A stretch of DNA of 60,366 nucleotides, counting the filler. It is 3 parts of 3 records of this genome, joined end to end, with 100 filler letters (N's around TTAATTAATTAA, not from the genome) between each part and the next. Parts side by side here need not be neighbours in the genome. Positions count along the whole stretch, not along the records: positions 19,177 to 42,941 come from SRR22947725_218; 2 more parts are not named here. One strand, given 5' to 3'. The position numbers were made by a program, and so were the translations under genes. Numbering within the stretch: the stretch's first letter is position 1; every line of letters begins with the position of its first letter. Under the pieces are notes generated by a model. That model searched no databases, was not told the DNA's origin, and was given only the letters and a program-made list of their open reading frames with translations. Below are positions 12,436 to 60,036 of the stretch, piece by piece.

Positions 12436-13371
12436 ATGAACGAATTTGAATTTATTAATAAATATTTTAAGCCGCTTACTTCTAAAGAAGCTCAAAACCT
12501 TATAAATGATGCTGCTTTATATAAACCAAAACTTAATACCGATATTGTAATAAGCACAGATACTTTAGCTGAAGGTATTCATTTTTTTGGTAATGAAAAT
12601 CCTAGAGATATAGCAAAAAAATGTTTAAGAGTAAATTTGTCTGATATGGCCGCAATGGGTGCTAAACCTGTTTTTTATAATTTATCTATAAGTGTTCCCA
12701 AAAACAAAGCAAATATTTTTATACCAGCATTTGCTAAAGGCTTAAAAGAAGATCAAGAAGCTTATAACATAAAATTAATTGGAGGAGACTTAACGGCCTC
12801 TTTAAAGCATATAAATATTACTATAACTATTTTTGGCGAAATACCATCTGATCAAGCAATATCAAGAAATGGAGCCAAGATCAATGATTTCTTATATGTA
12901 ACTGGTTATTTAGGCTTGTCGAAAGTAGGTCTTGATAACTATTCATCAAATTCTAAAGATCTTAGGCAAGCTAAACAAAAATATTTACTTCCTCAACCTC
13001 GTGTTAAGCTAGGAATGGAATTAAGAGACATTGCAACATCTATGATAGATGTTTCAGATGGTCTTGTACAAGACGCAACTCACTTAGCTATAAATTCCAA
13101 CTTATCATTAGAACTAAATATTAATCAATTACCATTACCTACTTTAAAATCTATACAAAAAAAAGAACTTTTAAATGCTGCTTTATATGGCGGTGATGAT
13201 TATGAATTATTATTTTCTTGTAAGGAAAATGAATCACGTTTAGAGGATCTTTCTAAACAGTGCGATGTAAAGATAACAAAAATAGGTGTTTTCAAAAAAT
13301 TTCAAAAAATATATTTAAATTTTAAAGGATTTAACGAATTGCCTAAAAAGATATCTTACTCACACTTTTAG
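12436..13371 (+). CDS. thiL: Thiamine-monophosphate kinase
   Basis: MNEFEFI, EGIHF, NLSDMAAMGA, IGGD, IDVSDGL, GGDDYEL. Confidence 0.96.
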   Translation: MNEFEFINKYFKPLTSKEAQNLINDAALYKPKLNTDIVISTDTLAEGIHFFGNENPRDIAKKCLRVNLSDMAAMGAKPVFYNLSISVPKNKANIFIPAFAKGLKEDQEAYNIKLIGGDLTASLKHINITITIFGEIPSDQAISRNGAKINDFLYVTGYLGLSKVGLDNYSSNSKDLRQAKQKYLLPQPRVKLGMELRDIATSMIDVSDGLVQDATHLAINSNLSLELNINQLPLPTLKSIQKKELLNAALYGGDDYELLFSCKENESRLEDLSKQCDVKITKIGVFKKFQKIYLNFKGFNELPKKISYSHF

Positions 13372-13802
13372 TCTTCGACATTTCTTCTTCTTAAATTATT
13401 TATTATGTCTTTCCAAAATTGTATTGAAGTATTATTTTTTTCTAGAGAGTTCTTTTTAGAAATTTTAACATTTTTGGAATCAAATTTGTTATATTTTTTA
13501 ATTTTGTTTACTATATTTTTATCATTAAATGTAATTTCAAAAACAACTAAATTTAATGTTTTTCTGTCACTTAAATTTTTATAACCTGTTACGTGAGAGA
13601 CATAGTAAACAGTGTTTTTATTGAAAACACTATCAAAAACTGGAGGTCCATATTTTTTTATTAAATTTGATTTTGTAGTTATTCCCTCTTCAATTTTAAT
13701 TTCATTAATTTTAACACTTGATAATCCAGTTTTTTGAATTTTTTGGCTACATGATGCATTAAAAAATATTACCAATATCAGAATAAATTTTAAATAAAAC
13801 AT
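13368..13802 (-). CDS. bamE: Outer membrane assembly lipoprotein BamE/SmpA
   Basis: Lipobox-like NASC, G.TTK..L...YGPP, YYVS; alphaproteobacterial position divergent from the Cbp3-like gene. Confidence 0.75.
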   Translation of the reverse strand: MFYLKFILILVIFFNASCSQKIQKTGLSSVKINEIKIEEGITTKSNLIKKYGPPVFDSVFNKNTVYYVSHVTGYKNLSDRKTLNLVVFEITFNDKNIVNKIKKYNKFDSKNVKISKKNSLEKNNTSIQFWKDIINNLRRRNVED

Positions 13803-13865
13803 GTACTTGGTCCTAATTTTGTTATAGAAGATAATTTTTTATATCACGTCATTAAATATATATAA

Positions 13866-14402
13866 ATGTTTTTAAACTCTTATCTCAATGCTAACTCAGA
13901 AAACCAAGCTTTAATTGATGGCATATACGAAAAAGTTGTATTAATTTCACGTAATAAGTCCTTTTATACAAAATTATCTGTTCCAGATACTATAGATGGT
14001 AGATTTGATCTTTTGGTTTTGTTTTCAGTCATTGTAATATTTTTTCTTAATCAATCTGGTGCTAATGGCAAATTATTATCACAAATGTTATTTGATAAAA
14101 TTTTTCTAGACCTTGACCTCAGTTTAAGGGAAGTGGGTGCAGGTGATGCAGGTGTTAATATCAAAATAAAAAAAATGGTTCAATCATATATGGGTCGTCA
14201 AAAAGTTTATTGTGAGAGCTTGGAAAACAAAGATTTTCAATCTTTGAAGAAATCCATAGCTAATAACGTATATCGAAACCTTGATAATTATTTAAATTAT
14301 CCAGATCTTCTTAATAATTATTGTAAAAAAGTATATCTTTTATTTTCTAATAAAAAAGAAGATTACTTTTCTTTAAATAAACTAGAGTTCCCTGACATTT
14401 GA
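13866..14402 (+). CDS. Ubiquinol-cytochrome c chaperone (Cbp3 family)
   Basis: VPDTIDGRFDLL, DLDLSLREVGAGD.GV..KIKKM...Y.GR...Y. Confidence 0.9.
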   Translation: MFLNSYLNANSENQALIDGIYEKVVLISRNKSFYTKLSVPDTIDGRFDLLVLFSVIVIFFLNQSGANGKLLSQMLFDKIFLDLDLSLREVGAGDAGVNIKIKKMVQSYMGRQKVYCESLENKDFQSLKKSIANNVYRNLDNYLNYPDLLNNYCKKVYLLFSNKKEDYFSLNKLEFPDI

Positions 14403-29613: not shown

Positions 29614-32601
29614 ATGCAGCTTAAACACATAAAACTAGCGGGTTTTAAGAGTTTCGTAGACCCAACCAAAATAGGGTTTCCTACGAATTTAGTTGGCGTT
29701 GTCGGTCCAAATGGTTGTGGAAAATCTAATGTAATTGATGCAGTCAGATGGGTCCTTGGAGAGCTATCTGCAAAGAATCTTCGTGGTGAATCCATGGTTG
29801 ATGTAATATTCAATGGCACAGACTCCAGAAAGCCATCAGGTCAGTGCAGTATTGAGCTTCTATTTGATAATTCTAGTGGAAAGATTGGAGGAGAGTATGC
29901 ATCTTTTAATGAGATATCAATCAAAAGAGTTATGACAAGAGACGCACAGTCTACTTACTTTATTAACAACACAAAATGTCGAAGAAAAGATGTTCAGGAT
30001 ATATTCCTAGGCACTGGGTTAGGTCCAAGCTCTTATGCGATTATCGAGCAGGGCATGGTTAGTAAATTAGTGAGTGCTAAGCCTGAAGAATTAAGAACTC
30101 ATATTGAAGAAGCAGCAGGAGTTTCCAAGTATAGAGAAAGAAGAAGAGAAACAGAATCAAGAATAAAGAAAACAAAAGAAAATTTATCTAGGGTTAATGA
30201 TATAAGAGATGAAATTGCAAGATTGATAAAAAGATTAGAAAATCAAGCAAATGCAGCAGAGAAATATAACTCTCTAAAAGAAGAAGAGTCTGTAAATAAA
30301 TTTGATACTGCTATTCTATTGTCACTTCAAGCTAAAGAAGGTAAAGACAAATTTCAAAAGCAGTTAGATGGCCATAAAAGAGACTTATTGATAAAAGAGG
30401 CTGAAGCTGAGACAAAACAATCTCAGATAGATGAGTTTAGAACACAGAATGAATCAGTTGTAACAGCTTATGAGAATGCTCAAAAGAACTTTTATTCAAT
30501 AGGAGCAGAGATAGCAAAACATGAAGCTAATTTAAAAAATATAAATAGAGATGAGATAAGCAATAGAACTAATTTAGAGAGAGCAATAAAAGGCTTTCAG
30601 GAAGCATCAAAAAAAGAAGCTGCATTCAAAGATCTTAGCCCAAGAGAAAAAGAGTTAAAGTTAAATATATCTATTATAAAAGCTCTTGAGGCTTCTAAAA
30701 ATATAGAGAGCATAACCCTCCAAATCAAACCTCTTCAAAATAATAGTGCAAATAAACTTAAAGAAGTGGAAGAGTTTCAAAATAAAATTAATACTATAAA
30801 TAATGATAATATCTCTCTACTGCAAAACCTAGAAAATTCACAAAAAGAATCTTATGAAATTAATGCAGTCATAAAGAGCTTAAAAGATAATATTGAAAGA
30901 AATTACTCTATAGAATCAAAAACAAAATCAAATTTAGATATAGCAAAGAATAATTATGCAGATGCTCTAGAAAAAGAGAAAAACCTAGACAATCTAAGTC
31001 CTAAAGAAAAGGCAATGCATGTCTTAGATAGCATCATAAACGCATTAAATGAACTCAATATCAGCAAAGGTGGCTTGAAAGATAAGGCTGCCGAATTAAA
31101 GGGCTTGTTAAAAGACATACTGCAAATAGCTTCAGCTCAATCAAAGTCCTTAACAGAACAGTTTTTAAAACGACAGGAAGAATTAGAGGTGCTCTTAAAA
31201 CATACACGCAGTGATATAAATAAGACAGAAAAAGAACTCACAGAACATGAGTCAAACAAAATAAAAATTGATTCTAATTTAGAAAAGTTAAAAATAAACA
31301 AGAGTGATTTCGACAATAAAATTAAAGATATAGAAGAAGCAAAGACAAAGGTATCATTTGAGCTTAGAGCTATAGATTCTGAAATTAATAAATATAAATT
31401 AGATTTAAGAACTTATGAAATTAACCTAGAAAATGCTTCAAGCGCATTATCTAGGGCTGATATAAGCATTTCTGATCTTAACGTGACTGAATACGAGGGA
31501 ATGGACTTAGACCTTCTTGAGAACTCGCTTAATGAAGTGCAAACAAATATTTCTAAACTAGGAAATCTTAACTTTGCTTCACCAGAAGAGTACAAGCAAA
31601 GACAATCTGAGCTTGAATCACTAATAAATTCTGCACAGCTTGAAAAAAATTCAATTGAGAGTCTAATGTCTGAGCTTGTCCAGAAAAGCTCTGAATCTGA
31701 ATCTGTTTTGCTAGATATTCGACAAAAACAGTCTCATTTTAATGAAAGCCTTAGAGAGCTTGAAGGTAAAAAACAACTTGCATTGGTTGATGTAAAAAAT
31801 ATTACAGAAAAGATAACTGATACTAGATTAGAGTTAAAAACCTATGAAATTAATTTAGATAATGCTAATGAACAAATAAATAAATCAGGTTTAAAAGTTA
31901 GCGATATTGATTATGAAAAGTATCGAGATATGGAAGTCTCTAAATTACAAGATAATTTGGCTTTGATACAATCAAAAATTATTAGACTAGGCGCGATTAA
32001 TTTAGCTGCTCCAGATGAAATTTCTGCTGAAGTAAAAAGAAAAGAAGAGCTTGATATACAGTATGAAGATCTAACAAGCGCTTTAGATAAGCTGTCTTCA
32101 GCAATCAAAACTATTGATAACGAGACAAAATCAATGTTTAAAAATAGCTTTGATGCAGTAAACACAAGAATAAAAGAAGTTTTCCCAAAATTATTTGGAG
32201 GCGGTTTCGCTGAGCTTACCTTAACTGATGACGATCCTTTAAATGCAGGAGTTGTTTTAATGGCAAGACCACCAGGAAAAAAGAATTCCTCAATTTCTCA
32301 GTTATCAGGAGGAGAAAAAGCTTTAACAGCACTTTCTTTGGTTTTCTCTATCTTTGAGCTTAATCCTGCACCATTTTGTATGCTAGATGAAGTAGATGCA
32401 CCACTCGATGACCTAAACACATTGAGATTTATTAATATGGTAGAAGAGATGTCAAAAGATGTTCAGTTCATATTCATTACGCACAACAAGGTCTCAATGG
32501 AAAAAAGTGACTATCTCATGGGCGTAACCATGCAAGAACCAGGGGTGTCTAGACTTGTTTCAGTCGATATGAGCCAAGCACTTGAGTTTGTTGAGTCTTA
32601 G
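29614..32601 (+). CDS. smc: Chromosome segregation ATPase Smc; hinge-less, with internal arm duplications
   Basis: GFKSF, GPNGCGKSN, LRG..M.DVIF, IIEQG, EEAAG; C-head LSGGEK, LDEVDAPLD, ITH; upstream of zipA-ligA. Confidence 0.95.
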   Translation: MQLKHIKLAGFKSFVDPTKIGFPTNLVGVVGPNGCGKSNVIDAVRWVLGELSAKNLRGESMVDVIFNGTDSRKPSGQCSIELLFDNSSGKIGGEYASFNEISIKRVMTRDAQSTYFINNTKCRRKDVQDIFLGTGLGPSSYAIIEQGMVSKLVSAKPEELRTHIEEAAGVSKYRERRRETESRIKKTKENLSRVNDIRDEIARLIKRLENQANAAEKYNSLKEEESVNKFDTAILLSLQAKEGKDKFQKQLDGHKRDLLIKEAEAETKQSQIDEFRTQNESVVTAYENAQKNFYSIGAEIAKHEANLKNINRDEISNRTNLERAIKGFQEASKKEAAFKDLSPREKELKLNISIIKALEASKNIESITLQIKPLQNNSANKLKEVEEFQNKINTINNDNISLLQNLENSQKESYEINAVIKSLKDNIERNYSIESKTKSNLDIAKNNYADALEKEKNLDNLSPKEKAMHVLDSIINALNELNISKGGLKDKAAELKGLLKDILQIASAQSKSLTEQFLKRQEELEVLLKHTRSDINKTEKELTEHESNKIKIDSNLEKLKINKSDFDNKIKDIEEAKTKVSFELRAIDSEINKYKLDLRTYEINLENASSALSRADISISDLNVTEYEGMDLDLLENSLNEVQTNISKLGNLNFASPEEYKQRQSELESLINSAQLEKNSIESLMSELVQKSSESESVLLDIRQKQSHFNESLRELEGKKQLALVDVKNITEKITDTRLELKTYEINLDNANEQINKSGLKVSDIDYEKYRDMEVSKLQDNLALIQSKIIRLGAINLAAPDEISAEVKRKEELDIQYEDLTSALDKLSSAIKTIDNETKSMFKNSFDAVNTRIKEVFPKLFGGGFAELTLTDDDPLNAGVVLMARPPGKKNSSISQLSGGEKALTALSLVFSIFELNPAPFCMLDEVDAPLDDLNTLRFINMVEEMSKDVQFIFITHNKVSMEKSDYLMGVTMQEPGVSRLVSVDMSQALEFVES
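30292..31011 (+). repeat. Diverged tandem duplication (about 360 nt / 120 aa) in the Smc N-terminal coiled strand
   Basis: ENAQK/ENSQK (aa 287/407) and LSPREK/LSPKEK (aa 341/461; nt 30634/30994); outer boundaries approximate. Confidence 0.85.
31162..32019 (+). repeat. Diverged tandem duplication (about 429 nt / 143 aa) in the Smc C-terminal coiled strand
   Basis: KRQEELE/QRQSELE (aa 519/662), TYEINL (aa 600/743; nt 31411/31840), LGNLNFASP/LGAINLAAP (aa 649/792). Confidence 0.9.
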
Positions 32602-32602
32602 A

Positions 32603-35988
<3,386 letters not shown>

Positions 35989-42941: not shown

Positions 42942-43041
42942 NNNNNNNNNNNNNNNNNNNNNNNNNNNNNNNNNNNNNNNNNNNNTTAATTAATTAANNN
43001 NNNNNNNNNNNNNNNNNNNNNNNNNNNNNNNNNNNNNNNNN
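42942..43041. other. Artificial contig-joining spacer (N44-TTAATTAATTAA-N44)
   Basis: Same structure as first spacer; GC content rises visibly after it. Confidence 0.99.
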
Positions 43042-43929
43042 GTAGCGGTCTTCAGGTTTCTTTTCAAGAAGCTTGCCAATGATGTGATTGAACATATTGG
43101 TTGTTTCAGGAACGAGCTCTTGAAGTGAGGGAGCTTTTTGGTCAACGTGCATGTGGACCATTTCAGCCAATGAGTCGGCTTCGAAAACAAAACGACCGGT
43201 AACAAGGTGGAAGAGGGTCGCTCCGAGACAGTAAAAGTCACTGCGGATGTCAACTTCAGTACCAAGGACTTGTTCAGGAGAAATGTACTGAGGTGTCCCA
43301 GCGATCGTATCTTCATCTTCTTCAGTTTCAACACCGCCGCGCAGAGAAAGTCCAAGGTCCATGACTTTGCAAGTACCGTCACTGGCAACCATAATATTTT
43401 CAGGTTTGATATCGCGGTGAACTAGGCGGCTTTTATTCCAAGCGTAGCCAAGAGCATTGGTGGTATCGATGGCGATGTCTATTGCATAAGATTCTATAAT
43501 GGAGCCTTCGCGCTTTAAAACGGAGCTTAAGTCAAGGCCTTCCACAAGCTCCATGGCAAAGAAAAGGACGCCATTTTCTATACCGACTTTATAAGCCTGG
43601 ATGATATTTAGATGGTTTAGGCTGGCGACAGAACGAGCTTCATTGATAAAGTCGACTTGGAATTTTTCGTCTTCGAGGAATTGCGGGTGTAAGATCTTGA
43701 GAGCGACTTGCCGGTCAAGTGAGAATTGGTAAGCGATGTAGACATTACCCATGCCTCCGCTGCCGAGTAAGTTCTCAATGAGGAAGTCGTCTATGGCAAC
43801 ACCAGGGCCAAATTCTACAGGGACTTCACAGGCACCTTCACAATGCCCGCACATGACGGCTTCATCACCGTATTCTGCGATTAAAATACCCCCACAATGA
43901 GCACACTGAAACTTTACACTATTATCCAC
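43042..43929 (-). CDS. Hanks-type Ser/Thr protein kinase with N-terminal Zn ribbon (3'-truncated)
   Basis: CAHC...CGHC; LGSGGMG.VY, VALK, HRDIKPEN, DLGL, GTPQYISPE. Confidence 0.93.
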
Positions 43930-44098
43930 GATTTTATCCAGATTTCTTCCAAACGGATTTTAAGCTAATATCTACAATTCTTAAAGATACGCAAAAAATG
44001 ACAGAATAGTGACTAGTCTAGGCAAAAAACATGCTATTTATCATGGATTTTGCTTAAATACTTGATAGAGAGTTGTAGAACGATATTTATTTGATGTG

Positions 44099-44992
44099 TT
44101 ACTTTTTGAGTTTCTCGTTAAAAAACTTTAAAATAACGGCATTTGCTTCAGGAGTAAGGAACTCTTTACCGCCGTGTTTTGCGCCTTTGATGATATGTAA
44201 TTGGCTCGAAGCTCCGACTTCCTTTAATTTTTTATGCAGTTTCAAGCTTTGCTCAAGGGGAACCCCTGGGTCTAAGTCTCCATGCATGATCAAAAAAGGC
44301 GGGTCATTTTTTGAAACATTCCAATAGGCAGAAGCTTCTTTGGCAAGTTCAGGAACATCTCTAACAGTTTTGCCGAGAAGTTTAGCGCCATTACTTTGTG
44401 AGACTTGCTCGAGTGTTCTTTTTTCACTGACAACGTTTGGAGGCATAGTGAGTAAATCGCTAGGGCCGTACCAGTCAAGAACTGCTTGGACTTGGCTTGA
44501 TATTTCTTCACTTTTTGGCAAATCCTGGGTACCAAGAACAGCCACTAAATGACCTCCAGCAGAACCACCCCAAGCGGCAATTTTTGTGCCGTCAAGTCCG
44601 TACTTCGCGGCATTTTTTCTGAGAAAGCGCACGGCTGCTCGGCAATCGTTAATTTGTGCTGGCCATTGGTGAGGAATAAGGCGGTAATTGATAGAGGCAA
44701 TAGCGAAGCCATGTTCTACAAGCCATAAGCCTTTATGCTTTTCTTTACTGCCATTTTTCCAGCCGCCACCATGAACCCACATGACGACTGGCGCTTTACC
44801 CTTGTACTCTTTAGGTAGGTAGAGGTCTAAGTGCAGAGCTTGACCATCGTTAACGGTGTATTCTATATCCTTCATTACTTGAATATATTCGGGAATCTTC
44901 TTCCCTTTTTTCTTTTTATTTTGCTGGGCATTTACATTGAAAGCGACAACGAAACTGATGAAAAATGAAATGATATAAACCGCTTTATTCAT
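44099..44992 (-). CDS. Secreted alpha/beta hydrolase (esterase/lipase-like)
   Basis: Signal peptide; HGGGW, GGSAGGHL, HGDLD..VP, terminal His. Confidence 0.9.
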   Translation of the reverse strand: MNKAVYIISFFISFVVAFNVNAQQNKKKKGKKIPEYIQVMKDIEYTVNDGQALHLDLYLPKEYKGKAPVVMWVHGGGWKNGSKEKHKGLWLVEHGFAIASINYRLIPHQWPAQINDCRAAVRFLRKNAAKYGLDGTKIAAWGGSAGGHLVAVLGTQDLPKSEEISSQVQAVLDWYGPSDLLTMPPNVVSEKRTLEQVSQSNGAKLLGKTVRDVPELAKEASAYWNVSKNDPPFLIMHGDLDPGVPLEQSLKLHKKLKEVGASSQLHIIKGAKHGGKEFLTPEANAVILKFFNEKLKK

Positions 44993-45029
44993 GTATAATC
45001 CTTTTTAAAATTTTTGCTTGTATATAAAC

Positions 45030-45056
45030 ATACGTGCTCAATGAGAATAAATGACA
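45030..45056 (-). promoter_or_regulatory. Putative alternative (ECF-like) sigma promoter TGTCA-N17-CGTAT
   Basis: Bipartite motif; variants recur upstream of neighbouring minus-strand genes (43987-44014, 46610-46636, 48593-48620). Confidence 0.45.
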
Positions 45057-45087
45057 TGACAAAGAATTTTACTAGTGGTTGCCTTTG

Positions 45088-46581
45088 TTACTTGCCTTCT
45101 TTCATCCACTTGAGGTATAGCTCGGAATTTCGCCGGTAATTTTCACGGGAGTTTTTATTGTGTATGGATTTCATCTGGTCTTCTGTTTCTGAAATATAGA
45201 CTTCAATGCTTTCCGGTCCGGGGTCACCTGTTTGCTTTATCCAGGTATCGAGTTGAGCCCGGTGCTTTTTGAGTATGGTCGCGTATTCGGGATCGTTGGC
45301 GAGATTCTTAATTTGCCAAGGGTCACCCCCATAGAGGTAGAGCTCCTCTTGTGGGCGAGTTGGGGCGAAGAGTATTTTTTCTGTAAGTTCGCTGACTTTG
45401 CCTTCTTTATGAAGCTGACGAAGACGTTTGATGATGAGTTTACTGTCTTTGTAGTTACTCGGCATGAGAAATGGTCTTTCAGGGTAGAAATTCTTAATGT
45501 AGAGGAACTTTTCTGTGCGCACAGAGCGAATGCGGTCAGCAGCATCACCACAACGATCACGGGCTGCAAAAACAGCTTCTTTCTGGGAGTAGTTGGGTGC
45601 TAGTATATCTTGGCCTTCCATTTTTTGAGGGATGTTGATGCCGGCAGCAGCAAGAGAGAGGGCCGCGATATCGATAGACTCGACGAGATCGTGACGCCTT
45701 TGATTTTGAGGAATGCCTGGCCCGCTGATAATCAGTGGTATATGAGTGCCTTCATCATAGAGAAACTGCTTGCCACGAGCGTGACTTATACCATGGTCTG
45801 TAAAGAATATGATGAGCGTATTTTCAAGTAGCTTTTCTTTTTTTAGCCTAGCGAGTACCCGACCGACATGATGATCGGTAATTTTTACGGAATCGAGATA
45901 AGTCGCCCAGTCTTGAAGTATGATGGGGTCTTGAGGATAGTAGAGTGGGAGCTGAATCTTCGCTGGATCGGTCTTTTGTTTAAATTCTTTGAGCATGCGC
46001 TTTTCGGTTATTTCATAGTGTTTGGCACTGGCTCCGCGAATTTTGCCCCCGTGTAACTGGACTTGCATGAAGAAAGGTTGCTCTTTGTTACGACCGGCCC
46101 AATCATGGCTATTGTAGATCGATTTATCCCAGTTGAAATTATAGTCGGATTTCCCAAGGCGGTCAGATTTCGTGGGGCTGCCGGTATGGTTAATACCGGG
46201 TAAACCACTGCCCATGCAGGTCCAATAACCGGCTTCTTGAAAAAGTTTTGGAATGGGGTGAACCCCTTGGGGAAGTTCAATGCGGTGTTCTCCACGACCA
46301 CTGCGGTGATGGTGTGCACCTATGGAGTTTTGATACATGCCAGTAATTAAAGAGGAGCGAAATGTTGAGCAAACAGGCGAAGTTGCATAAGCCCTTTTGA
46401 AAAGAAGCCCCTTTTGGGCGAGGCTATCAACATGTGGTGTTGTAATGACGTTTTCTCCGTAACAGGAGAAGTTTGCCGACATATCGTCGACAACAAACCA
46501 GAGGATGTTGGGTTTCTCTTGAGCTTGTATAAGGGTGCCAGAGAGTAAGCTGAAAAGCAAAGCGAGTGTAATAGTTTTCAT
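45088..46581 (-). CDS. Formylglycine-dependent (S1) sulfatase
   Basis: Signal peptide; KPNILW.VVDD, PVCSTFRSSLITG, TDHG, RGKQFLY, DPWQ.KNLA. Confidence 0.92.
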   Translation of the reverse strand: MKTITLALLFSLLSGTLIQAQEKPNILWFVVDDMSANFSCYGENVITTPHVDSLAQKGLLFKRAYATSPVCSTFRSSLITGMYQNSIGAHHHRSGRGEHRIELPQGVHPIPKLFQEAGYWTCMGSGLPGINHTGSPTKSDRLGKSDYNFNWDKSIYNSHDWAGRNKEQPFFMQVQLHGGKIRGASAKHYEITEKRMLKEFKQKTDPAKIQLPLYYPQDPIILQDWATYLDSVKITDHHVGRVLARLKKEKLLENTLIIFFTDHGISHARGKQFLYDEGTHIPLIISGPGIPQNQRRHDLVESIDIAALSLAAAGINIPQKMEGQDILAPNYSQKEAVFAARDRCGDAADRIRSVRTEKFLYIKNFYPERPFLMPSNYKDSKLIIKRLRQLHKEGKVSELTEKILFAPTRPQEELYLYGGDPWQIKNLANDPEYATILKKHRAQLDTWIKQTGDPGPESIEVYISETEDQMKSIHNKNSRENYRRNSELYLKWMKEGK

Positions 46582-46651
46582 AGAAGGCCTTTTTTATCTT
46601 TGTGTAGTGATAGGCAAAACCTTTTGAAATCTTACAGCTCGCTTGATAAAA

Positions 46652-48496
46652 TTATTTTCCTTCGATCAGGTATTCCACGCGGTGCTTAACGAGGCCGCCA
46701 AGTTTTGACCACTTTGCTTTCTTGACCATGGCCGGAGTTATCTTCATTCCGGTGGCGTCCTTGAGAAGAACGACGCTGTTTAAAATAAGGTTGGCCTCAA
46801 TAGGGTCAGTACAATCATCCAAGATGTCCATGACTAAAGGCAAAGGATCGGCGGCGCCCGTTAAGCCGAGGAATTCGGCGGCTCGAGTGCGAACGAGGCG
46901 ATTGGGGTCTGACTTGGCTAATTTTTTAGCCTTTTCATAAAAAGAACTCGATTTTTTACCAAAACTACTACAAACGATTAAACCCCAATAGCGCTCCATT
47001 GGGTCTTCGGCATTTAGAGCCGTACTGATCTGAGCTTTGGCTTCCGGGTAGGGGGCTAATTGTAGATCGGCGATAGCGGCTAATTTAGCAATTTGGTCTT
47101 GGTTTTTTTCGAGGAGTTCGACAACATTCCCGTTGCATGGAGTGAGTGCTGTCTCAGGTAAGAAACTGACGTCAGGCAATTCTCTGACAGTATTTTTCAT
47201 TTGGCGGCGCATATCGGCGAGTATTTGTGAATAGGCCGGGTCTTTGGCGAGATTATTGACTTCATGAGGGTCTTTTTCTATATCAAACAATTGCTCGGGG
47301 TCGCGGGCTTTAAAGAAAGCAGATTGGGTCGCGTTGAGCTTTCCTGATTGGGCCAGGTCACGCCATTCGCGAAAGGCCGCTTGCTTATAGCGATAGAAGT
47401 TGTGGAGGCCATCGAAATTAAAAGGCTGGTAGTTGCGCCAGTAAGTATATTTCCCTTTGCGAAGAAAGCGTACTTGATCATACTTTTCATCGAAGCGGTC
47501 GGCATAACCTAAGGCGCTATCGCGAGAGTTCAGCTCTTTCAAAGTGACGCCTTGACCAAGAAATGGTTTGCCATCGATTTGTTGGGGGATATCTATGCCA
47601 GCGAGATTAAGAACTGTTGCCGAAAGATCCACAAACTGTACAAAGCCATCTATGCGAGAGCCGCGTTTGGCCGGAACGAGGTGCTGCCAGTTTTTAGGAA
47701 CGTAAACGACCATGGCGACTTGTAGACCGTCGTTGTGGGCGTAGCCCTTGCCACCAGGAAGAACGCCACCGTGATCGCCATAGTGAAAAATAAAAGTATC
47801 CTCCATAAGGCCGTCATCTTCTAGTTGCTTGATGATGCGGCCCATTTCAGCGTCGACTATATGATTGCGGGTAATGTACTCCGCATATTTTTGGCGCATA
47901 AGAGGGGTGTCTGGATGATAAGGGAAGAGTTGGACATCTTCCGGTTTTACAATGAGTTCTTTACCTTTGGGGAGGTCCTTAAAGAGTTGACCTTCATGGG
48001 TGGTACCGTGATTTTGAACGTGAAAGAAAGGTTGCCCTGGTTTTCTTTTGCGAAAAGTTGCTTTTCTTGAGCTTTCATCCCAGATGCCATCGACGTGTTC
48101 TTTGACGTAATTGTAGTCTTGCTTGCTATTATTAGTTGTGTAGTAACCGGCTTCGCGCAGGTAGGCTGGAAAAAGTTTTAAGCCTTTAGGTGGCTGAACT
48201 TTGACTTGGGGACGGTGAAAGTGAGCACCGGTTCTTGGACCGTAGATTCCGGAAATAATAGTACTACGGGCAGCAGAACAGACGGGGGCATTTGAATAAG
48301 CATTATTGAAAACCAAACCATTTTTAGCCAGCTTTTCGATATTGGGCATGGGGGCACCAAATTCTGGATTGTAGAGTCGGTACCAGCAGGCAGAGTTATC
48401 TTCAGTCGTGATCCATACTATGTTGGGGCGCTTTTGTTCCGCAACGGTTGTTGAAATGATTAAAAAATAGATGAGAATTGAAGTCCATCTTGACAT
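46652..48496 (-). CDS. S1 sulfatase with C-terminal HEAT-like extension
   Basis: RPNIVWI..ED, PVCSAARSTIISG, GDHG, DPHEVNNLA; helical tail with VRTRAAEFL. Confidence 0.92.
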   Translation of the reverse strand: MSRWTSILIYFLIISTTVAEQKRPNIVWITTEDNSACWYRLYNPEFGAPMPNIEKLAKNGLVFNNAYSNAPVCSAARSTIISGIYGPRTGAHFHRPQVKVQPPKGLKLFPAYLREAGYYTTNNSKQDYNYVKEHVDGIWDESSRKATFRKRKPGQPFFHVQNHGTTHEGQLFKDLPKGKELIVKPEDVQLFPYHPDTPLMRQKYAEYITRNHIVDAEMGRIIKQLEDDGLMEDTFIFHYGDHGGVLPGGKGYAHNDGLQVAMVVYVPKNWQHLVPAKRGSRIDGFVQFVDLSATVLNLAGIDIPQQIDGKPFLGQGVTLKELNSRDSALGYADRFDEKYDQVRFLRKGKYTYWRNYQPFNFDGLHNFYRYKQAAFREWRDLAQSGKLNATQSAFFKARDPEQLFDIEKDPHEVNNLAKDPAYSQILADMRRQMKNTVRELPDVSFLPETALTPCNGNVVELLEKNQDQIAKLAAIADLQLAPYPEAKAQISTALNAEDPMERYWGLIVCSSFGKKSSSFYEKAKKLAKSDPNRLVRTRAAEFLGLTGAADPLPLVMDILDDCTDPIEANLILNSVVLLKDATGMKITPAMVKKAKWSKLGGLVKHRVEYLIEGK

Positions 48497-48702
48497 GATT
48501 GGGGTCCTGTATTTTCATTAAATATGATGATGTCTAGATTCTAAATAATATCAGTAGACTATTCATTAGTGAGTTAATTATATATTGTATTTATACGACA
48601 GTAGATGACATAAGAGGACAATTTTTTGTTGGCTCACTGAATTATTGCAGGGCTTCCCTCTAGACTTGGTGCATTTTAATGTGTATAAAAGTCGTATTAA
48701 TA

Positions 48703-49089
48703 ATGAGTTGCGAGCGCGTTTTGAAAATTTTGATTGTTGACGATCACGATGCAAATTTAAAAGTTCTTAGTGTGATTCTTAAGAAGTCTTTTAAGGATTT
48801 GCATGTGGATTGTGCCGAGAATGGCCGTCAAGCAGTCGATTTAACTCTTGAAGAAAAATACGACTTAATCCTGATGGATATTAATATGCCCGTGATGGAT
48901 GGTTGTGAAGCAACGGGGAAAATTCGTCAGCAATATCCAGAGCAAAATATAATTGCCATGACAGCAGTGAGTAAACAACGCTTAGCAGAAATAGAAGACA
49001 TGAAGTTGTTTGAACTCATTATCCCTAAGCCTTTCAACCCCGCGAACTTAATCGAAACATTAAAAAATTACTTACCCCAAGACTCTTAG
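48703..49089 (+). CDS. Single-domain response regulator (CheY-like)
   Basis: ILIVDD, ILMDINMPVMDG, AMTA, KPF; start uncertain (48679 or 48703). Confidence 0.9.
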   Translation: MSCERVLKILIVDDHDANLKVLSVILKKSFKDLHVDCAENGRQAVDLTLEEKYDLILMDINMPVMDGCEATGKIRQQYPEQNIIAMTAVSKQRLAEIEDMKLFELIIPKPFNPANLIETLKNYLPQDS

Positions 49090-49106
49090 TCAGACCTGTG
49101 GATTTT

Positions 49107-49568
49107 TTAATACTGAAATGGCCAGGGATTTTTGAGTAGTTTTGAGTTGAAGTAGCGGTAATCAAAGGTGACTTCTTCAGTGATCCAATCTGGAATCGGT
49201 GGTTGAGCATCTTCGCTTTCCATTTCGACTTCAGCCACAATAAGGCCTTTGTTTTGCCCTTCAAAGACGTCTACTTCCCAATCGTAGCCTTCATAAGGAA
49301 TGACATAGCGCGTTTTGACAATGCGTTGTATGCCGCAGAATTCATCGAGCATGGCGAGGGCATCTTCCATGGGGATTTTATACTCAAACTCAGTACGGGA
49401 TATGCCTTTGGTCTTACCTTTGACGGTGAGCCAGGCTTTTTTGTTACCGGTGCGTATTCTGACAGTTGAGCTACTTTTGGCAATGTACCCCTGTTGGATT
49501 TCCATGCCTTTGTATCCTTTCCAGGGCTCCCCTTTGACGAGGAATTTTCGCTCAATTTCTTTTGACAT
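49107..49568 (-). CDS. CYTH-domain protein
   Basis: EIERKFLV, QGY, VRIR, R.EFEY.IP, K.RY, WEVDVF, AEVE. Confidence 0.93.
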   Translation of the reverse strand: MSKEIERKFLVKGEPWKGYKGMEIQQGYIAKSSSTVRIRTGNKKAWLTVKGKTKGISRTEFEYKIPMEDALAMLDEFCGIQRIVKTRYVIPYEGYDWEVDVFEGQNKGLIVAEVEMESEDAQPPIPDWITEEVTFDYRYFNSKLLKNPWPFQY

Positions 49569-49769
49569 CTAGTAACTCCAGTAGCTTTTTTTGAATATTT
49601 AAAAATACATCTAAAAAGAGGGACATCAATTGAGCTTATTAAAATATCTTAATGATGGGGGACAATGGCAGATGATTAGGCTTTTATTTTTTGGTCTTTC
49701 CAGTTGCATTTCACGCATTTTACTAGAGTTTAGGGGCATATAAATTATTGATTAGAAAAGGTTTTGAAT

Positions 49770-50870
49770 ATGGCTGGATTATCCTGTGGAATTGTTGGTT
49801 TGCCGAATGTAGGTAAGTCGACTTTATTTAATGCAATTACTAAAGCGGGTGCTGAAGCGGCAAATTACCCTTTTTGTACTATTGACCCCAATGTTGGTGT
49901 TGTTACTGTTCCTGATGTACGAGTGGAGCGCTTGGTCGAATTGGTACAGCCTAAAAATACTCAGTACGCGACGATTGAGTTTGTTGATATCGCCGGTTTG
50001 GTTCGCGGAGCGTCTAAAGGGGAAGGCCGCGGTAATCAGTTTTTAGATAATATTCATCATGTGGATGCGATTGTGCATGTTGTCCGCTGCTTTCAAAATG
50101 ATAATGTTGTCCACGTTGACGGTAAGGTTGATCCAGTTGCAGATATCGATACCATTAATTTGGAGTTAATTCTGGCCGATTTGGATCGTTGCGATAAGAC
50201 AATTGAACGCTTGTCTAAGAAAGCGAAAGGCAATGACGCAACTGCTAAGAAGCAAATGGAAGTCATGAAGAAGATGGCGGCTCACTTAGAAGAAAATTTA
50301 AGTTTGCGTGTTCTTGATTTGACTGATGACGAAAAAGAATCGGTAGAAGAGTACAAATTTTTGACCGATAAGCCGATAATTTATGTGGCGAATGTCGGAG
50401 AAGATGATCTTCCTGCGATGGAGAATGACATGGTTCAAAAAGTCCGGGATTTCGCCGCGACAGAAAATGCCGAAGTTGTTCCTGTTTGTGCTGCTATCGA
50501 GGAAGAAATCGCTCAGTTAGATGCCGAAGAATCAAAAGAGTTTTTAGAGTCTTTAGGCCTAGATGAGTCTGGCTTAGATCGCTTAATTAAGAAGAGTTAT
50601 TCGACTCTTGGTTTAATTACTTACCTTACTGCGGGTGAAGTTGAAGTGAGAGCTTGGACCATTCGCGAAGGTTGGACGGCGCCGCAGGCAGCGAGTGTGA
50701 TTCACTCAGATTTTGAAAAATTATTCATTCGCGCAGAAGTTAAGAATTTTGCAGATTTTGATCGCCTTGGTTCAGAAAAGGCCGTTAAAGAGGCGGGTTT
50801 GATGCGCGTTGAAGGTAAAGAATATATCGTTAAAGATGGCGATATAATGTTATTCCTCAACGGAAAATAA
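49770..50870 (+). CDS. ychF: Redox-regulated ATPase YchF
   Basis: GIVGLPNVGKSTLFNA, NYPFCTIDPN, DIAGLV, EVRAWTI, EGKEYIVKDGD. Confidence 0.97.
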   Translation: MAGLSCGIVGLPNVGKSTLFNAITKAGAEAANYPFCTIDPNVGVVTVPDVRVERLVELVQPKNTQYATIEFVDIAGLVRGASKGEGRGNQFLDNIHHVDAIVHVVRCFQNDNVVHVDGKVDPVADIDTINLELILADLDRCDKTIERLSKKAKGNDATAKKQMEVMKKMAAHLEENLSLRVLDLTDDEKESVEEYKFLTDKPIIYVANVGEDDLPAMENDMVQKVRDFAATENAEVVPVCAAIEEEIAQLDAEESKEFLESLGLDESGLDRLIKKSYSTLGLITYLTAGEVEVRAWTIREGWTAPQAASVIHSDFEKLFIRAEVKNFADFDRLGSEKAVKEAGLMRVEGKEYIVKDGDIMLFLNGK

Positions 50871-50873
50871 TTC

Positions 50874-52673
50874 ATGGCTTCTCGCCAGGATAGAATGAGT
50901 AATTATCAGCAGGTTATTGAAAGCTTGCGCCAAGAAGGTGACGCCTTTAAAGCGGGTGAAGGTAAATTTACGGCTTTGCGCGTTGTAACTTTCGGGGCGG
51001 CTTGTTTAACCCTGGCTTATGCTGTTCTTGCTGGTGGGATAAGTCCTTGGTGGACGGTCATTCCCGGCGTGATGTTTGTTTTTGTGGTGATGTTACACGA
51101 AAATCAGTTGCGTACGACGGCTAGAAATCAGAAAAAGATCGATTTTTACGAGCGTGGTTGCCGGCGGATAGCGGGTGACTGGCATGAAGATGGTTTACAA
51201 GGAACAGACTTTGCCGATAAAGACCATTTATTTTCTGGCGATTTAAATCTTTTTGGCAAGGCTTCTCTTTTTCAAAAGCTTTGTCTTTGTACAACGGCCT
51301 TTGGTCGTCAACGCTTGGCAGATTGGCTTAAGAATCCTGCCGATAAAGATATTATTGCCGTTCGGCAAGAGGCCTTAAAGGAGCTTGCCGAGGACCGTTC
51401 GCTTATTGCTTCTTTCGCCGAATTAGATAGCGAAGAAACGGCTCATTTGGAGATCAGTGTTTTAAAATCCTGGTCGGCAGAAGGAACAGACCTTTATCAT
51501 CCCCTAGCTTATTTTATGTCTTTATTTATGGGCATGTTATCGGTTGTTACTTTAATCGCGTGGATTCCTTTTCAGCAGAGTGCGTGGCCGTTTTTCATCT
51601 GTTTAGCGATAGATTTATTGATTGGTAATATTTATGTCGGTCGAATTGCCAAGGTAACGGAAGGAATTTCCTCTAAAGAGAAAAATTTAAAGAAGTTATC
51701 TCAAGTATTAAAAGTTCTTGAAGCAGGCTCATATGAAAGTGCTTTGATGAAAAGAATTACATCTGAAATTCGCACTGATAATGTAAAGGCTTCGGAGCGC
51801 ATAAAGCAAATTGCTTACTTAATCGATACTTTTGAAAATACTCGTTCTAATCTGGCCATTCAGCCTTTTAATTTATTGTTGCATATAAACTTGCGTAATG
51901 CCATGAAAATTGAACGCTGGCGGCAGATGGCAGGGGCTAGTATTCCGCAATGGGTTGAGGCCGCAGCCGATTTTGAAGCTTTAGTTTCTTTAGGTGTTTT
52001 TGCACATGAGAATCCAGACTATGATTATCCCACTTTTGTAGAGAATGGACCTTTTTTAAAGGCAGCTTCTTTAGGACACCCGTTATTGAAAGCGGAGAAT
52101 TGTGTACGCAATGATGTCAATTTAGGGGAGCCGACACAGTTGTTGCTAATCAGTGGATCCAATATGGCGGGTAAATCGACTTTTTTAAGAACTGTCGGGG
52201 TGAATATTGTTCTTGCTCAGGCGGGGGCTCCAGTCAATGCTTCAGGTATGAGCTTGTCTTCTTTATCCTTAGGCTGTTCTATTCAGATCGAGGACTCGTT
52301 GTCGGAGGGAATTTCTCATTTCTATGCAGAGATCCTGCGTTTGAAAAAGCTAGTTGATTTAGCGCAAGAAAAAAATGATAATGTGCTGTTTTTCTTTGAT
52401 GAAATTTTACACGGCACTAACTCAAGTGATCGCTGCAATGGGGCATCTGCGGTAATTCGCAGTTTGGTTGAAGGAGGAGCTGCCGGTTTTGTAACGACTC
52501 ATGACTTATCATTGACGGCGATAGCCGATGATTTGGGCGACAAAGCGCGGAATGTTCATTTTGAAGATCAATTTGCCGACGGTAAGATGACTTTTGATTA
52601 TAAGATGAAAGAAGGCGTTGTGACGCACGGCAATGCTTTGCAATTGATGCGTTCGTTGGGTTTAGAAGTTTAA
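50874..52673 (+). CDS. Membrane-anchored MutS-like ATPase (no mismatch-binding domain)
   Basis: Two hydrophobic helix pairs; SGSNMAGKST, SHFYAEI, FDEILHGTN, TTHD. Confidence 0.88.
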   Translation: MASRQDRMSNYQQVIESLRQEGDAFKAGEGKFTALRVVTFGAACLTLAYAVLAGGISPWWTVIPGVMFVFVVMLHENQLRTTARNQKKIDFYERGCRRIAGDWHEDGLQGTDFADKDHLFSGDLNLFGKASLFQKLCLCTTAFGRQRLADWLKNPADKDIIAVRQEALKELAEDRSLIASFAELDSEETAHLEISVLKSWSAEGTDLYHPLAYFMSLFMGMLSVVTLIAWIPFQQSAWPFFICLAIDLLIGNIYVGRIAKVTEGISSKEKNLKKLSQVLKVLEAGSYESALMKRITSEIRTDNVKASERIKQIAYLIDTFENTRSNLAIQPFNLLLHINLRNAMKIERWRQMAGASIPQWVEAAADFEALVSLGVFAHENPDYDYPTFVENGPFLKAASLGHPLLKAENCVRNDVNLGEPTQLLLISGSNMAGKSTFLRTVGVNIVLAQAGAPVNASGMSLSSLSLGCSIQIEDSLSEGISHFYAEILRLKKLVDLAQEKNDNVLFFFDEILHGTNSSDRCNGASAVIRSLVEGGAAGFVTTHDLSLTAIADDLGDKARNVHFEDQFADGKMTFDYKMKEGVVTHGNALQLMRSLGLEV

Positions 52674-52681
52674 GGCGGTTA

Positions 52682-54634: not shown

Positions 54635-55151
54635 ATTCTTTTTTCGGACGTTTGTCGAGTATAGCTTGCTTATCAACGGCATCGATAGAGATGTCATCGC
54701 CGGCGCCATTTGAATTGACTTTATCAGCCCCAGTTGACCATATGGTAAATTCTTTGCCATTAGTGGTGTAGAGATAAGGTAATCTCCAAGGGTCTAAAGG
54801 GGTCATGGGGTCGGCATTTGGAGCGGCATAGTTGTCATGAGAAGTGGTGATAGCAACGCCTTTGTAGTCGATGAACATGTCGCGCGGTTCAGTATTTTCT
54901 TTTGAGGGCATGATTTTAGAAAATTGTTCACCAAAATTTAAGACGTAATCTTTCTGTTGGGCGGGGTAATGGCCGTGATGGTGTTTGTATTGTTCTACAG
55001 CAGATTTTATAGCTTTAAGGTCGATAAGAACTTTGTAGTTTTCACGGGCAGAAGACATGCGCAGTGAATTTTTAAGGATGACTAAGGTGGCGAGTCCTAG
55101 GGCGAGTCCTAAACCGATGGTGACAGGCCAGTTTGTCTTTTTTGGATTCAT
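54624..55151 (-). CDS. GspG/pseudopilin-domain protein
   Basis: N-terminal TM; DL.AIK.A...Y....G.YP, DPW..PY.Y, WS.G.D....GDDI. Confidence 0.7.
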   Translation of the reverse strand: MNPKKTNWPVTIGLGLALGLATLVILKNSLRMSSARENYKVLIDLKAIKSAVEQYKHHHGHYPAQQKDYVLNFGEQFSKIMPSKENTEPRDMFIDYKGVAITTSHDNYAAPNADPMTPLDPWRLPYLYTTNGKEFTIWSTGADKVNSNGAGDDISIDAVDKQAILDKRPKKESNQ

Positions 55152-56594: not shown

Positions 56595-56659
56595 GGGTTT
56601 TTTAGGGGAATATAGACAGTTTCATCGGAGGTGAAAGAAGGAACGTTGATTTTCTTGAC

Positions 56660-57688: not shown

Positions 57689-57823
57689 AATAGAGAATCT
57701 ATGCCACTGAAATGAGTTGCTGTCAATAGCGGGCCTTTGATAACTACGGCTTAACATTTTATTTGTGAATACTGCCATTAGAGTAGATTTTATAAATAAA
57801 TTGAGTTTTAGGAGAAGTGATTT

Positions 57824-60035: not shown

Positions 60036-60036
60036 T

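Follow-up and report, generated by a model that had tools for sequence, protein, structure and literature searches.

The Smc protein encoded in the window (the whole 60,366-nucleotide stretch of DNA that was analyzed) was confirmed, by sequence comparison and by its predicted fold, to lack the central alpha/beta hinge domain. The best overall explanation, to which a probability of approximately 0.6 was assigned, is that this protein is an orthologous hinge-less Smc with modular hairpin arms and a helical contact at the tip. The hinge is regarded as a core part of every SMC complex, in which it serves as the constitutive dimer interface, as a DNA-binding site and, in cohesin, as an entry gate. 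The gene and its ATPase head regions are located as follows.

29,614..32,601, + strand: smc ORF encoding a hinge-less protein of 995 aa
29,614..30,108, + strand: N-terminal half of the ATPase head (aa 1-165) with Walker A GPNGCGKSN, defined by Pfam, PDB matches and invariant alignment columns
32,119..32,598, + strand: C-terminal half of the ATPase head (aa 836-995) with the signature LSGGEKAL, Walker B LDEVDAPLD and H957

The assignment of the 995-aa protein as the Smc orthologue of a gammaproteobacterium of the SAR86 cluster was supported by the TIGR02168 profile, the tree and the locus. TIGR02168 SMC_prok_B (NCBIfam) matched at 834.8 bits, above the equivalog cutoff of 567.35, in three stretches, the best of which aligned aa 2-506 with positions 1-514 of the 1181-position profile. 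Pfam SMC_N matched with an E-value of 3.6e-55, and the top PDB sequence matches were the Smc head constructs 5xg3, 3zgx and 5h68, down to E 2e-107. These three results bore out the original prediction that both head halves are canonical. The ABC-type head was found to be complete (Walker A, Q-loop, signature LSGGxK, Walker B and H-loop), and its catalytic motifs were invariant columns in both Smc alignments (A1 and A2). In the tree, the SAR86 hinge-less Smc branched inside gammaproteobacterial Smc on a long stem of 1.19 changes per column.

Other SMC-like families were also considered. Membership in MukB/MksB was excluded by the profiles and by the position in the tree with gammaproteobacterial Smc; neither MukB nor Mks families were present among the Pfam and NCBIfam matches of the 995-aa protein. 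The best score of the Rad50 NCBIfam models was 54.8 bits, whereas their cutoffs are at least 700, and the RecN model was absent among the 18 NCBIfam families matched at E ≤ 1. RecN and Rad50/SbcC resemble the SAR86 protein in combining a head with a coiled coil that has no globular hinge. However, RecN is about 550 aa long, the SAR86 protein has far longer arms than RecN, and the tree and the locus indicate that it is orthologous to Smc.

The two genes downstream of smc are the following.

32,582..33,250, + strand: zipA, 222 aa (ZipA_C 1e-13, Pfam), the first 20 nt of which are shared with the end of smc
33,253..35,406, + strand: ligA, 717 aa, encoding an NAD-dependent DNA ligase (Pfam DNA_ligase_aden 3.4e-94, along with further ligase domains)

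The locus was indeed the normal smc-zipA-ligA locus that had been predicted. Among 60 SAR86 loci, zipA lay downstream of smc in all 60 and ccm genes lay upstream in 56; ligA was present in the window. The smc-zipA order is the gammaproteobacterial norm and is kept in SAR86. A scan of 55 further ORFs in the window found no scpA/scpB, parB or second SMC-type complex. A compositional break was observed in the window at about 44 kb, and a tRNA scan of the window aimed at this GC break found none.

To define the distribution of the protein, a species-level sample of SAR86 loci was used, comprising single-cell genomes, metagenome-assembled genomes and one complete chromosome (OX044367.1). Smc ORFs that passed both motif checks were obtained from 58 of the 60 loci, and all of them were hinge-less in length: 29 were 995 aa long, 25 were 732 aa, two were 730 aa, and one each was 727 and 733 aa. 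The remaining two were L002, which was cut by a contig end, and L032, a 732-aa ORF that failed one motif check. Among the best 120 homologues listed, 119 were 995 aa and one was 977 aa long, and PF06470 was matched in none of these. Many SAR86 loci carried AG- or AH- single-cell isolate labels, which we take to denote the GORG-Tropics single-cell collection.

It could be supposed that a collapsed repeat, a chimeric contig or a gene-calling error deleted the hinge, and the contig of the window is not above suspicion elsewhere because of the compositional break. However, the hinge-less architecture recurred in independent single-cell genomes, metagenome-assembled genomes and a complete chromosome from many studies, the length was exactly 995 aa in 119 of the 120 listed database clusters, and the Smc of L001, encoded on a 1.26-Mb contig, was 99% identical to the query. 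An artefact is thus refuted in practice, with a probability close to nil.

PF06470 SMC_hinge (Pfam) did not match the 995-aa protein even at E ≤ 1, and its 54 PDB sequence matches, judged by their names and matched residue ranges, included no stand-alone hinge construct. The hinge profile was likewise unmatched at E < 0.01 in three of the five canonical-length relatives scanned (P0126, P0128 and P0135), so a missing Pfam match alone is weak evidence. The region between the heads contained no Cys, no CxxC and no G-x6-G-x3-GG motif, and CxxC was absent between the heads in all 59 SAR86 Smc sequences; among 143 canonical gammaproteobacterial Smc, the regular expression for the glycine motif found a match in just 5. 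Therefore, the case for hinge loss rests on length arithmetic, profile comparison and predicted fold. In alignment A1, the coil positions that precede and follow the hinge were only about 81 aa apart in the SAR86 protein, where canonical relatives have an alpha/beta hinge of roughly 170 aa. When SAR86 apex profiles were compared by hhalign with the hinge regions of the 143 canonical Smc, aa 400-560 reached a probability of 3.6% and aa 434-514 one of 0.15%. A degenerate hinge was undetectable at the apex, as hhalign aligned only a 12-column motif of the post-hinge coil, 'FLKRQEELEVL' (the 3.6% match).

The element that replaces the hinge is located as follows.

30,913..31,155, + strand: apex module at the hinge position (aa 434-514), defined by alignment A1, AlphaFold2, conservation and its dissimilarity to canonical hinges

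In the AlphaFold2 model of the 995-aa protein, aa 170-861 were all-helical, with no strands and with a 7-residue tip loop at 481-487. The 732-aa form was predicted to have the same apex design, with a tip loop at 361-367 and again no strands. The predicted order of the apex is the end of the N helix, a proline kink (460-461), a helix (462-480), the loop and the start of the return helix, which carries the conserved 'IASxQSKSxT'. Joint breaks were predicted at 758-798, where the joint motif aligned with that of canonical Smc, and the predicted boundaries gave an arm of about 315-350 aa. These models were of moderate quality (mean pLDDT 72.1 and 73.4, pTM 0.29 and 0.40; 37-38 sequences), and their heads were poor. 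The antiparallel fold-back of the arm was inferred from the predicted secondary structure and from Foldseek matches to SMC-like structures at low TM-scores of 0.17-0.22. The Foldseek search of the full-length model against PDB returned generic SMC matches only (TM-score ≤ 0.22) and was uninformative on the apex.

The original prediction had placed a helical apex of approximately 50 aa at 31,012-31,161, which correspond to aa 467-516 of the ORF, and the peptide quoted there matched letter for letter. The absence of hinge and Rad50 hook and the helical character of the apex agreed with the null Pfam and hhalign results, the lack of CxxC and the AlphaFold2 model. The size required correction, since the replacing element spans about 81 aa, of which the 50 aa are a part. 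The proposal that Smc dimerizes through a small helical bundle found no support. The density of conserved hydrophobic residues at the apex was ordinary: it was 0.288, the arms averaged 0.249, and 143 of the 481 windows along the arm reached at least the apex value; because this value lies within the ordinary arm range, the signature of a four-helix bundle is absent. Prediction of two copies of aa 400-560 as a complex by ESMFold2, run without alignment or controls, gave a score of 0.02 against a mark of 0.32, which says nothing on pairing.

The apex nevertheless contained two islands of conservation, 460-469 (0.78) and 500-509 (0.71), compared with 0.34 in the tip loop and 0.2-0.4 in the flanks. 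A hinge-independent tip contact might be formed by the conserved faces that the two apex helices present at aa 460-475 and 494-514; it would keep the arms closed around DNA and would be comparable in role to the Rad50 zinc hook or the RecN coiled-coil contact. This step of the proposed mechanism is tentative, with somewhat less than even odds, and the conserved residues may serve solely to stabilize the kink and cap. A plausible but less probable alternative is that the apices make no contact at all: the hairpins would be joined only at the heads, by the ATP sandwich and the kleisin bridge, with the arms perhaps zipped along their sides. The SMC compartment would then be open on top, and only the kleisin compartment could hold DNA topologically. 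Such an open tip agrees with the lack of excess conserved hydrophobics, with the variable tip loop, and with the conservation of the neck and heads, which exceeds that of all other parts and would be expected if every contact with a partner lay close to the heads. It also agrees with the fact that three or more related length families (732/995, 810 and 827 aa) have lost the hinge and show no obvious domain in its stead. However, the two apex helices each carry conserved islands of polar and hydrophobic residues, which would need explaining, and hinge-dimerization mutants of Bacillus subtilis Smc are defective.

The arm length, which is rigidly fixed in each class, also counts against an open tip. 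SAR86 Smc fell into two length classes, one of 995 aa and one of about 732 aa. The 30 Smc of 995 aa (the query and 29 loci) aligned without a single gap, and the sister hinge-less families were 810 and 827 aa long, the former with at least 106 proteins of exactly 810 aa (P0130 and those listed). This suggests that both arm ends must be in register with something.

The difference between the 995-aa and 732-aa forms was exactly 120 aa in the N arm plus 143 aa in the C arm, and each arm of the longer form was found to contain a tandem repeat.

30,334..30,693, + strand: N-arm repeat copy 1 (aa 241-360), with the kink 'DLSPREKE' at its end (hhalign; AlphaFold2 break at 335-342)
30,694..31,053, + strand: N-arm repeat copy 2 (aa 361-480), ending in the apex kink 'NLSPKEKA' (460-467) and helix A (462-480) (hhalign, AlphaFold2)
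31,156..31,584, + strand: C-arm repeat copy 1 (aa 515-657), ending in 'LGNLNFASPEE' (hhalign), absent from the 732-aa form
31,585..32,013, + strand: C-arm repeat copy 2 (aa 658-800), head-proximal, with the joint motif 'LGAINLAAPDE' (hhalign, alignment, AlphaFold2)

The N-arm copies matched in register by hhalign with a probability of 98.0 (E 1.6e-13), and their 47-aa windows 314-360 and 434-480 matched with a probability of 97.1 (E 1.5e-10); the boundaries of these repeats are an interpretation of the hhalign comparisons. The C-arm copies matched over columns 1-143 on 1-143 with a probability of 99.9 (E 2.6e-33). In contrast, ten cross-arm or reversed controls gave probabilities of at most 11% and E-values of at least 0.0027. 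One 120-aa N-arm unit was missing in the 732-aa form, and the identity to its single C-arm unit was 0.57 for copy 2 and 0.30 for copy 1. C-arm copy 1 consisted of a helix of about 100 aa and a second, joint-like element, and its predicted breaks at 615-631 and 649-656 mirrored those of the canonical joint. The predicted patterns of helices and breaks recurred between the arm copies and between the two forms. A third, older N-arm copy was rejected, as window 194-240 was insignificant against 314-360 and 434-480 (probabilities 1.8 and 0.2). A single nested insertion for both arm blocks was also rejected, because a contiguous copy would bring a second tip (297 aa, not 263).

The 995-aa forms constituted one side of a branch with SH-aLRT 93 in a quick tree, in which the short forms were unresolved at the base. 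The difference in length could stem from a duplication on the way to the 995-aa forms or from a loss on the way to the 732-aa forms. The description of the protein as a minimal condensin was adequate for the short form, half of the family, but not for the 995-aa form, whose arm is near the canonical length.

Two further alternatives were considered. The first is that the gene lost its function in chromosome organization after hinge loss and is decaying or has another ATPase role. The long stem branch and the streamlined SAR86 genomes (contigs and chromosome of about 1.2-1.3 Mb) are in line with such a relict. On the other hand, the ORF was intact in all 58 loci with invariant catalytic motifs, and its length was exactly conserved. 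Mean pairwise identity among 19 non-redundant 995-aa sequences was 0.94 for the N head, 0.91 for the C head and 0.99 for the neck (aa 166-193), across species that were only about 65% identical overall. Matched duplications that re-extend the arm are also hard to explain without selection on arm geometry, and a relict was considered quite improbable. The second alternative is a domain-swapped rod, in which two chains would form one intermolecular antiparallel coil with a composite head at each end (N half of one chain, C half of the other). Nothing in the sequence forbids it, and the tip loop is short (7 aa) and unconserved. However, AlphaFold2 placed a loop rather than a continuous helix at the matching position in both forms, and, by arithmetic and the predicted breaks, the N-arm kink and the joint-like breaks of the C arm face each other only if the chain folds back. 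To our knowledge, all solved structures of the SMC family fold back intramolecularly. Such a rod appears highly improbable.

The preferred mechanism, a hinge-less Smc with modular hairpin arms, may be described as follows. The hinge dimerization domain would have been deleted in the ancestor of the SAR86 clade. Each chain would fold back on itself into a long antiparallel coiled coil capped by a small helical element, namely a proline kink, a 19-aa helix, a 7-aa variable loop and a return helix. An arm module would comprise an N helix of about 117 aa paired with a C helix of about 100 aa plus a 43-aa joint element, with one module in the 732-aa form and two in the 995-aa form. The second module likely arose when 120 aa of the N arm and 143 aa of the C arm were duplicated in tandem, by which a near-canonical arm length would have been regained. 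Two hairpins would be joined at the heads by ATP and, presumably, the kleisin ScpA, and the protein would still act as an ATP-driven chromosome organizer. These steps, which precede the tip contact, were considered very probable.

The SAR86 protein shares the head motifs, the neck, the joint 'LGxINLAAxxE' and long helical arms with canonical bacterial Smc (Smc-ScpAB, for example of B. subtilis or Pseudomonas). Its length is quantized, at about 732 or 995 aa, whereas canonical Smc measure about 1150-1180 aa, and its arms, unlike theirs, are built from duplicated modules. A functional chimera of B. subtilis Smc with the hinge swapped for the Rad50 zinc hook has been described (PMC5344682, legend to Fig. 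5), and it may be regarded, by analogy, as a precedent that a generic tip dimerizer suffices. According to the part of that paper available, function was retained only at arm lengths spaced some 100 aa apart, or roughly one superhelical period; the module that separates the two SAR86 forms is similar in size. The Mini-Smc and Smc(Zh) proteins of that work, as described there, are laboratory constructs that have a shortened arm or a dimerizer other than the hinge at the tip and that retain a defined dimerization domain, whereas the SAR86 apex has no zinc hook. For Deinococcus radiodurans RecN, dimerization via hydrophobic coiled-coil contacts is stated in the accessible text of PMC6856136.

Among the papers listed by a literature search, none dealt with SAR86 Smc, and the sole relevant one on hinge-less SMC was PMC12153180 (Environ Microbiome 2025). 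The original prediction had named a prior description as counting against it, and one was found in part: that paper, in its available portion, describes a hinge-less oceanic SMC under another taxonomic label. The cluster combines a head with an antiparallel coiled coil lacking CxxC, is very abundant in Tara/OM-RGC, does not co-occur with regular SMC in GORG-Tropics single-cell genomes, and was assigned to the class Actinomycetes, near actinobacterial seed sequences. The SAR86 protein fits this description, being marine, with head and coil but neither hinge nor CxxC; however, by record titles and tree it belongs to Gammaproteobacteria. The comparison is one of descriptions, as the supplements consulted list OM-RGC identifiers without sequences, and the two may or may not be one family. 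The length classes, duplications and locus described here are not mentioned in the accessible part of PMC12153180. The two length classes with matched arm duplicates and the hinge-less sister families of 810 and 827 aa are new here.

The SAR86 family corrects or complements the sole prior report, in which, as far as its available text goes, the label is actinobacterial and no genomic context is given (PMC12153180). The present family is tied to SAR86 and to an ordinary smc-zipA locus, and its relatives include proteins of 810 and 827 aa. With two exact length classes that lie one duplicated module per arm apart, it represents a natural experiment on arm-length periodicity, which has otherwise been seen only in engineered B. 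subtilis Smc, judging from the part of PMC5344682 consulted.

SAR86 is one of the most abundant bacterial clades of the surface ocean, and an ecologically dominant bacterial order that keeps a well-conserved hinge-less Smc offers a natural test of which SMC functions depend on a closed tip. It is conceivable, though doubtful, that the SAR86 chromosome is organized by Smc without any tip dimerization domain and that the arm consists of duplicable modules of approximately one superhelical period, gained or lost in matched pairs, which would parallel in nature the arm-length series engineered in B. subtilis. If there is indeed no tip dimerization domain, a closed hinge would be dispensable for a natural bacterial SMC motor.

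The following open reading frame (ORF) was found:

29614-32601, plus strand: smc ORF, encoding a protein of 995 aa

The original prediction had described an Smc carrying a helical apex of approximately 50 aa in place of the hinge, and the apex peptide quoted there was matched letter for letter at 31012-31161, corresponding to aa 467-516 of this ORF. The ORF matched Pfam SMC_N (3.6e-55) and scored 834.8 bits with the NCBIfam equivalog TIGR02168 (SMC_prok_B; cutoff 567.35), and the solved structures matching it best were Smc head constructs, e.g., 5xg3, 3zgx and 5h68. Both head halves were canonical, as had been claimed: in alignments with relatives, Walker A, the signature motif, Walker B and the H-loop were invariant columns.

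The smc-zipA-ligA locus was also confirmed. Downstream of smc, zipA and then NAD-dependent ligA (33253-35406) were found, and the ccm cytochrome-c maturation genes were located upstream. The zipA ORF, as listed with a TTG start, overlapped the last 20 nt of smc (32582-32601), which suggests translational coupling. The ZipA protein of the window was short (222 aa). Within the 60-kb window, scpA, scpB, parB, mukBEF/mksBEF and a second smc were not found.

A scan of species-representative genomes yielded 60 loci carrying smc, labelled as SAR86 cluster bacteria, Gammaproteobacteria or Proteobacteria. Single-cell genomes were among them, as was one complete chromosome of 1.30 Mb (OX044367.1); one locus (L001), on the 1.26-Mb contig CALSPZ010000001.1, was 99% identical to the window. 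The zipA gene was located downstream of smc in all 60 loci, and ccmF, dsbE and ccmH were upstream in 56 of them; ligA was detected by tblastn in only 12. At the one locus inspected for this (L011), the slot of ligA was occupied by a gene for a 428-aa ATP-dependent DNA ligase (12828-14114; PF01068, 1.6e-23, and PF14743). The Smc ORF was 995 aa long in 29 loci, 732 aa in 25, 730 aa in two, and 727 and 733 aa in one each; this count leaves aside L002, where the contig end cuts the ORF, and L032, whose 732-aa ORF failed one motif check. Among the best 120 database clusters listed, 119 were exactly 995 aa long and one was 977 aa long, and none carried the hinge family PF06470.

Several other features of the window were recorded. 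At approximately 44 kb, the G+C content rose from ~30-34% to 40-47% and remained high to the window end (~43000-60366). This stretch, possibly a genomic island or the product of a chimeric join, contained genes for two sulfatases, a lipase/esterase, a response regulator and a MutS-family ATPase, together with ychF, ftsK, mutY and a pseudopilin-like gene. No tRNA was found at the boundary, and the matching L001 locus stops short of it. The MutS-family protein (50874-52673; 599 aa) matched MutS models solely in the C-terminal ATPase part of the models (aa 356-584, aligned to profile positions 534-764 of 793), and N-terminal domains for mismatch binding are seemingly absent from it. At 4422-6077, a ribonuclease of the RNase J family was encoded (TIGR00649, 409.3 bits; cutoff 400); this family is not known to be typical of Gammaproteobacteria.

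The absence of the hinge was examined by several approaches. In the Pfam scan, PF06470 gave no match to the 995-aa ORF even at E≤1. This criterion, which the original prediction had named as a check, is weak when taken alone, since three of the five canonical-length gammaproteobacterial Smc proteins scanned (P0126, P0128 and P0135) likewise had no match at E<0.01 and still aligned through the hinge with hinge-positive relatives. Therefore, Pfam-based 'no hinge' calls are unreliable in gammaproteobacterial Smc. The missing glycine motif is similarly weak by itself, as the regular expression found it in no more than 5 of the 143 canonical Smc proteins from Gammaproteobacteria. Alignment with canonical relatives placed ~81 residues (aa 434-514) between the end of the pre-hinge coil and the post-hinge motif 'FLKRQEELEVL', whereas the canonical proteins have ~170 aa at this place. 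When a profile of the SAR86 apex was compared with the hinge region of the 143 canonical proteins, the probability was 3.6% for aa 400-560 and 0.15% for aa 434-514, and the aligned columns comprised the post-hinge coil motif only. No stand-alone hinge construct occurred among the 54 matched PDB sequences, as judged by names and matched ranges. An AlphaFold2 model of the 995-aa form (37-sequence alignment; mean pLDDT 72.1, arms mostly 80-92) predicted only helix from aa 170 to 861, with the apex composed of a helix at 343-459, a kink at the 'LSP' proline (460-461), a helix at 462-480, a loop at 481-487 and a helix at 488-614. Considering the null profile comparison, the ~81-aa spacing and the all-helical model together, it could be concluded that the hinge is missing, as predicted. 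There was no cysteine between the heads, and therefore a Rad50-type CxxC zinc hook is also absent.

The 732-aa and 995-aa forms differed by exactly two blocks flanking the apex, of which the N-arm block measured 120 aa and the C-arm block 143 aa; both blocks are tandem duplicates. Comparison of the repeat copies by hhalign, using 30 ungapped 995-aa sequences, gave a probability of 98.0 (E 1.6e-13) for the N arm and 99.9 (E 2.6e-33, columns 1-143 on 1-143) for the C arm, and ten cross-arm or reversed controls gave probabilities of ≤11.1 and E values of ≥0.0027. Window tests placed the N repeat at approximately aa 241-360 and 361-480; therefore, copy 2 ends at the tip loop. The mid-arm kink 'DLSPREKE' (340-346) and the apex kink 'NLSPKEKA' were sisters in these tests. 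In the AlphaFold2 models, the N unit consisted of a helix of ~117 aa with the kink and the C unit of a helix of ~100 aa with a 43-aa joint element, the breaks at 615-656 being mirrored at 758-798; the model of the 732-aa form (pLDDT 73.4) had the same cap and one module. By arithmetic, the N-arm kink (335-342) would lie opposite the duplicated joint in the fold-back. In the short form, the unrepeated arm units matched the head-proximal segments of the long form (identity 0.65-0.69 and 0.57), and the two apices matched each other; the extra material of the long form was more diverged.

Among the 995-aa proteins, pairwise identity averaged 0.94 and 0.91 in the heads, 0.77 and 0.68 in the proximal repeats, 0.51 and 0.49 in the distal repeats and 0.58 in the apex. 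The neck was conserved like the head (0.99), and the cap contained two conserved islands, 460-469 (0.78) and 500-509 (0.71), around a variable loop (0.34). The SAR86 Smc has an intact, strongly conserved ATPase and arms of rigidly fixed length.

Relatives of other lengths were sought among 1.84 billion representatives. This search found two hinge-less proteins, P0130 (810 aa) and P0245 (827 aa), and a 990-aa relative (P0175) with shorter arms that kept the hinge (PF06470, 1.1e-05); otherwise, the 150 entries listed were mostly canonical (1110-1220 aa), and three shorter entries matched the query only in part. Where the source is named, P0130, P0245 and P0175 came from gammaproteobacterial MAGs. 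Among the matches listed for the 810-aa family, at least 105 proteins besides P0130 were exactly 810 aa long, identity over the arm region was 65-100%, and PF06470 was absent from all; this family is large and rigid in length. By arithmetic, the arms of the short form span ~200 aa and those of the long form ~330 aa, and a span of ~237 aa results for the 810-aa family. Bürmann et al. (PMC5344682) describe natural arm-length modes of 238 and 341 aa, as well as a functional arm periodicity of ~91-99 aa.

The stem of the hinge-less SAR86 clade was very long (1.19) in a quick maximum-likelihood tree (726 columns, LG+G4). The 810/827-aa pair was the sister of this clade (SH-aLRT 97), a placement to be read with caution because two long branches meet there. 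The 995-aa forms fell on one side of a branch (SH-aLRT 93), and the short forms lay at the base in an order that was not resolved. The simplest reading is a single hinge loss before the SAR86 and 810/827-aa families split, followed by a presumed arm re-extension in the 995-aa lineage.

The hinge-less Smc would presumably still be a chromosome-organising ATPase working with a kleisin. The far ends of two molecules might be held by a helical tip contact at the apex, which is tentatively favoured (probability roughly 0.4) because a chimeric B. subtilis Smc whose hinge was exchanged for a zinc hook is functional, so that a generic tip dimeriser can suffice (PMC5344682), and because D. radiodurans RecN is described as pairing via its coiled coils (PMC6856136). 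An open-tipped Smc joined at the heads and by the kleisin only is the main alternative and seems only somewhat less probable; the hydrophobic density of the apex is ordinary, and the computed data favour neither arrangement. The original interpretation was supported in part: it held for an Smc orthologue without a hinge, and dimerisation of this protein through a helical bundle gained no support from the apex composition.

The hinge-less SAR86 Smc was partly anticipated in print. A 2025 study (PMC12153180) describes 'hinge-less' SMC that lack CxxC and form a small OM-RGC cluster (cluster 9) of very high abundance. The cluster was modelled there with AlphaFold and annotated as Actinomycetes, and in single-cell genomes of GORG-Tropics it did not occur together with regular SMC. 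Compared by description, this cluster may be either the SAR86 family with a questionable label or another case, from Actinobacteria. Beyond this study, no other relevant paper on hinge-less SMC or SAR86 Smc was found in the literature searched. Apparently, neither the assignment to SAR86 nor the native smc-zipA locus has been published, and the same applies to the discrete length classes, the matched duplications and the sister families of 810 and 827 aa. It is concluded that the window gene encodes a genuine Smc orthologue of SAR86, which is conserved, has no hinge and carries modular arms with duplications.
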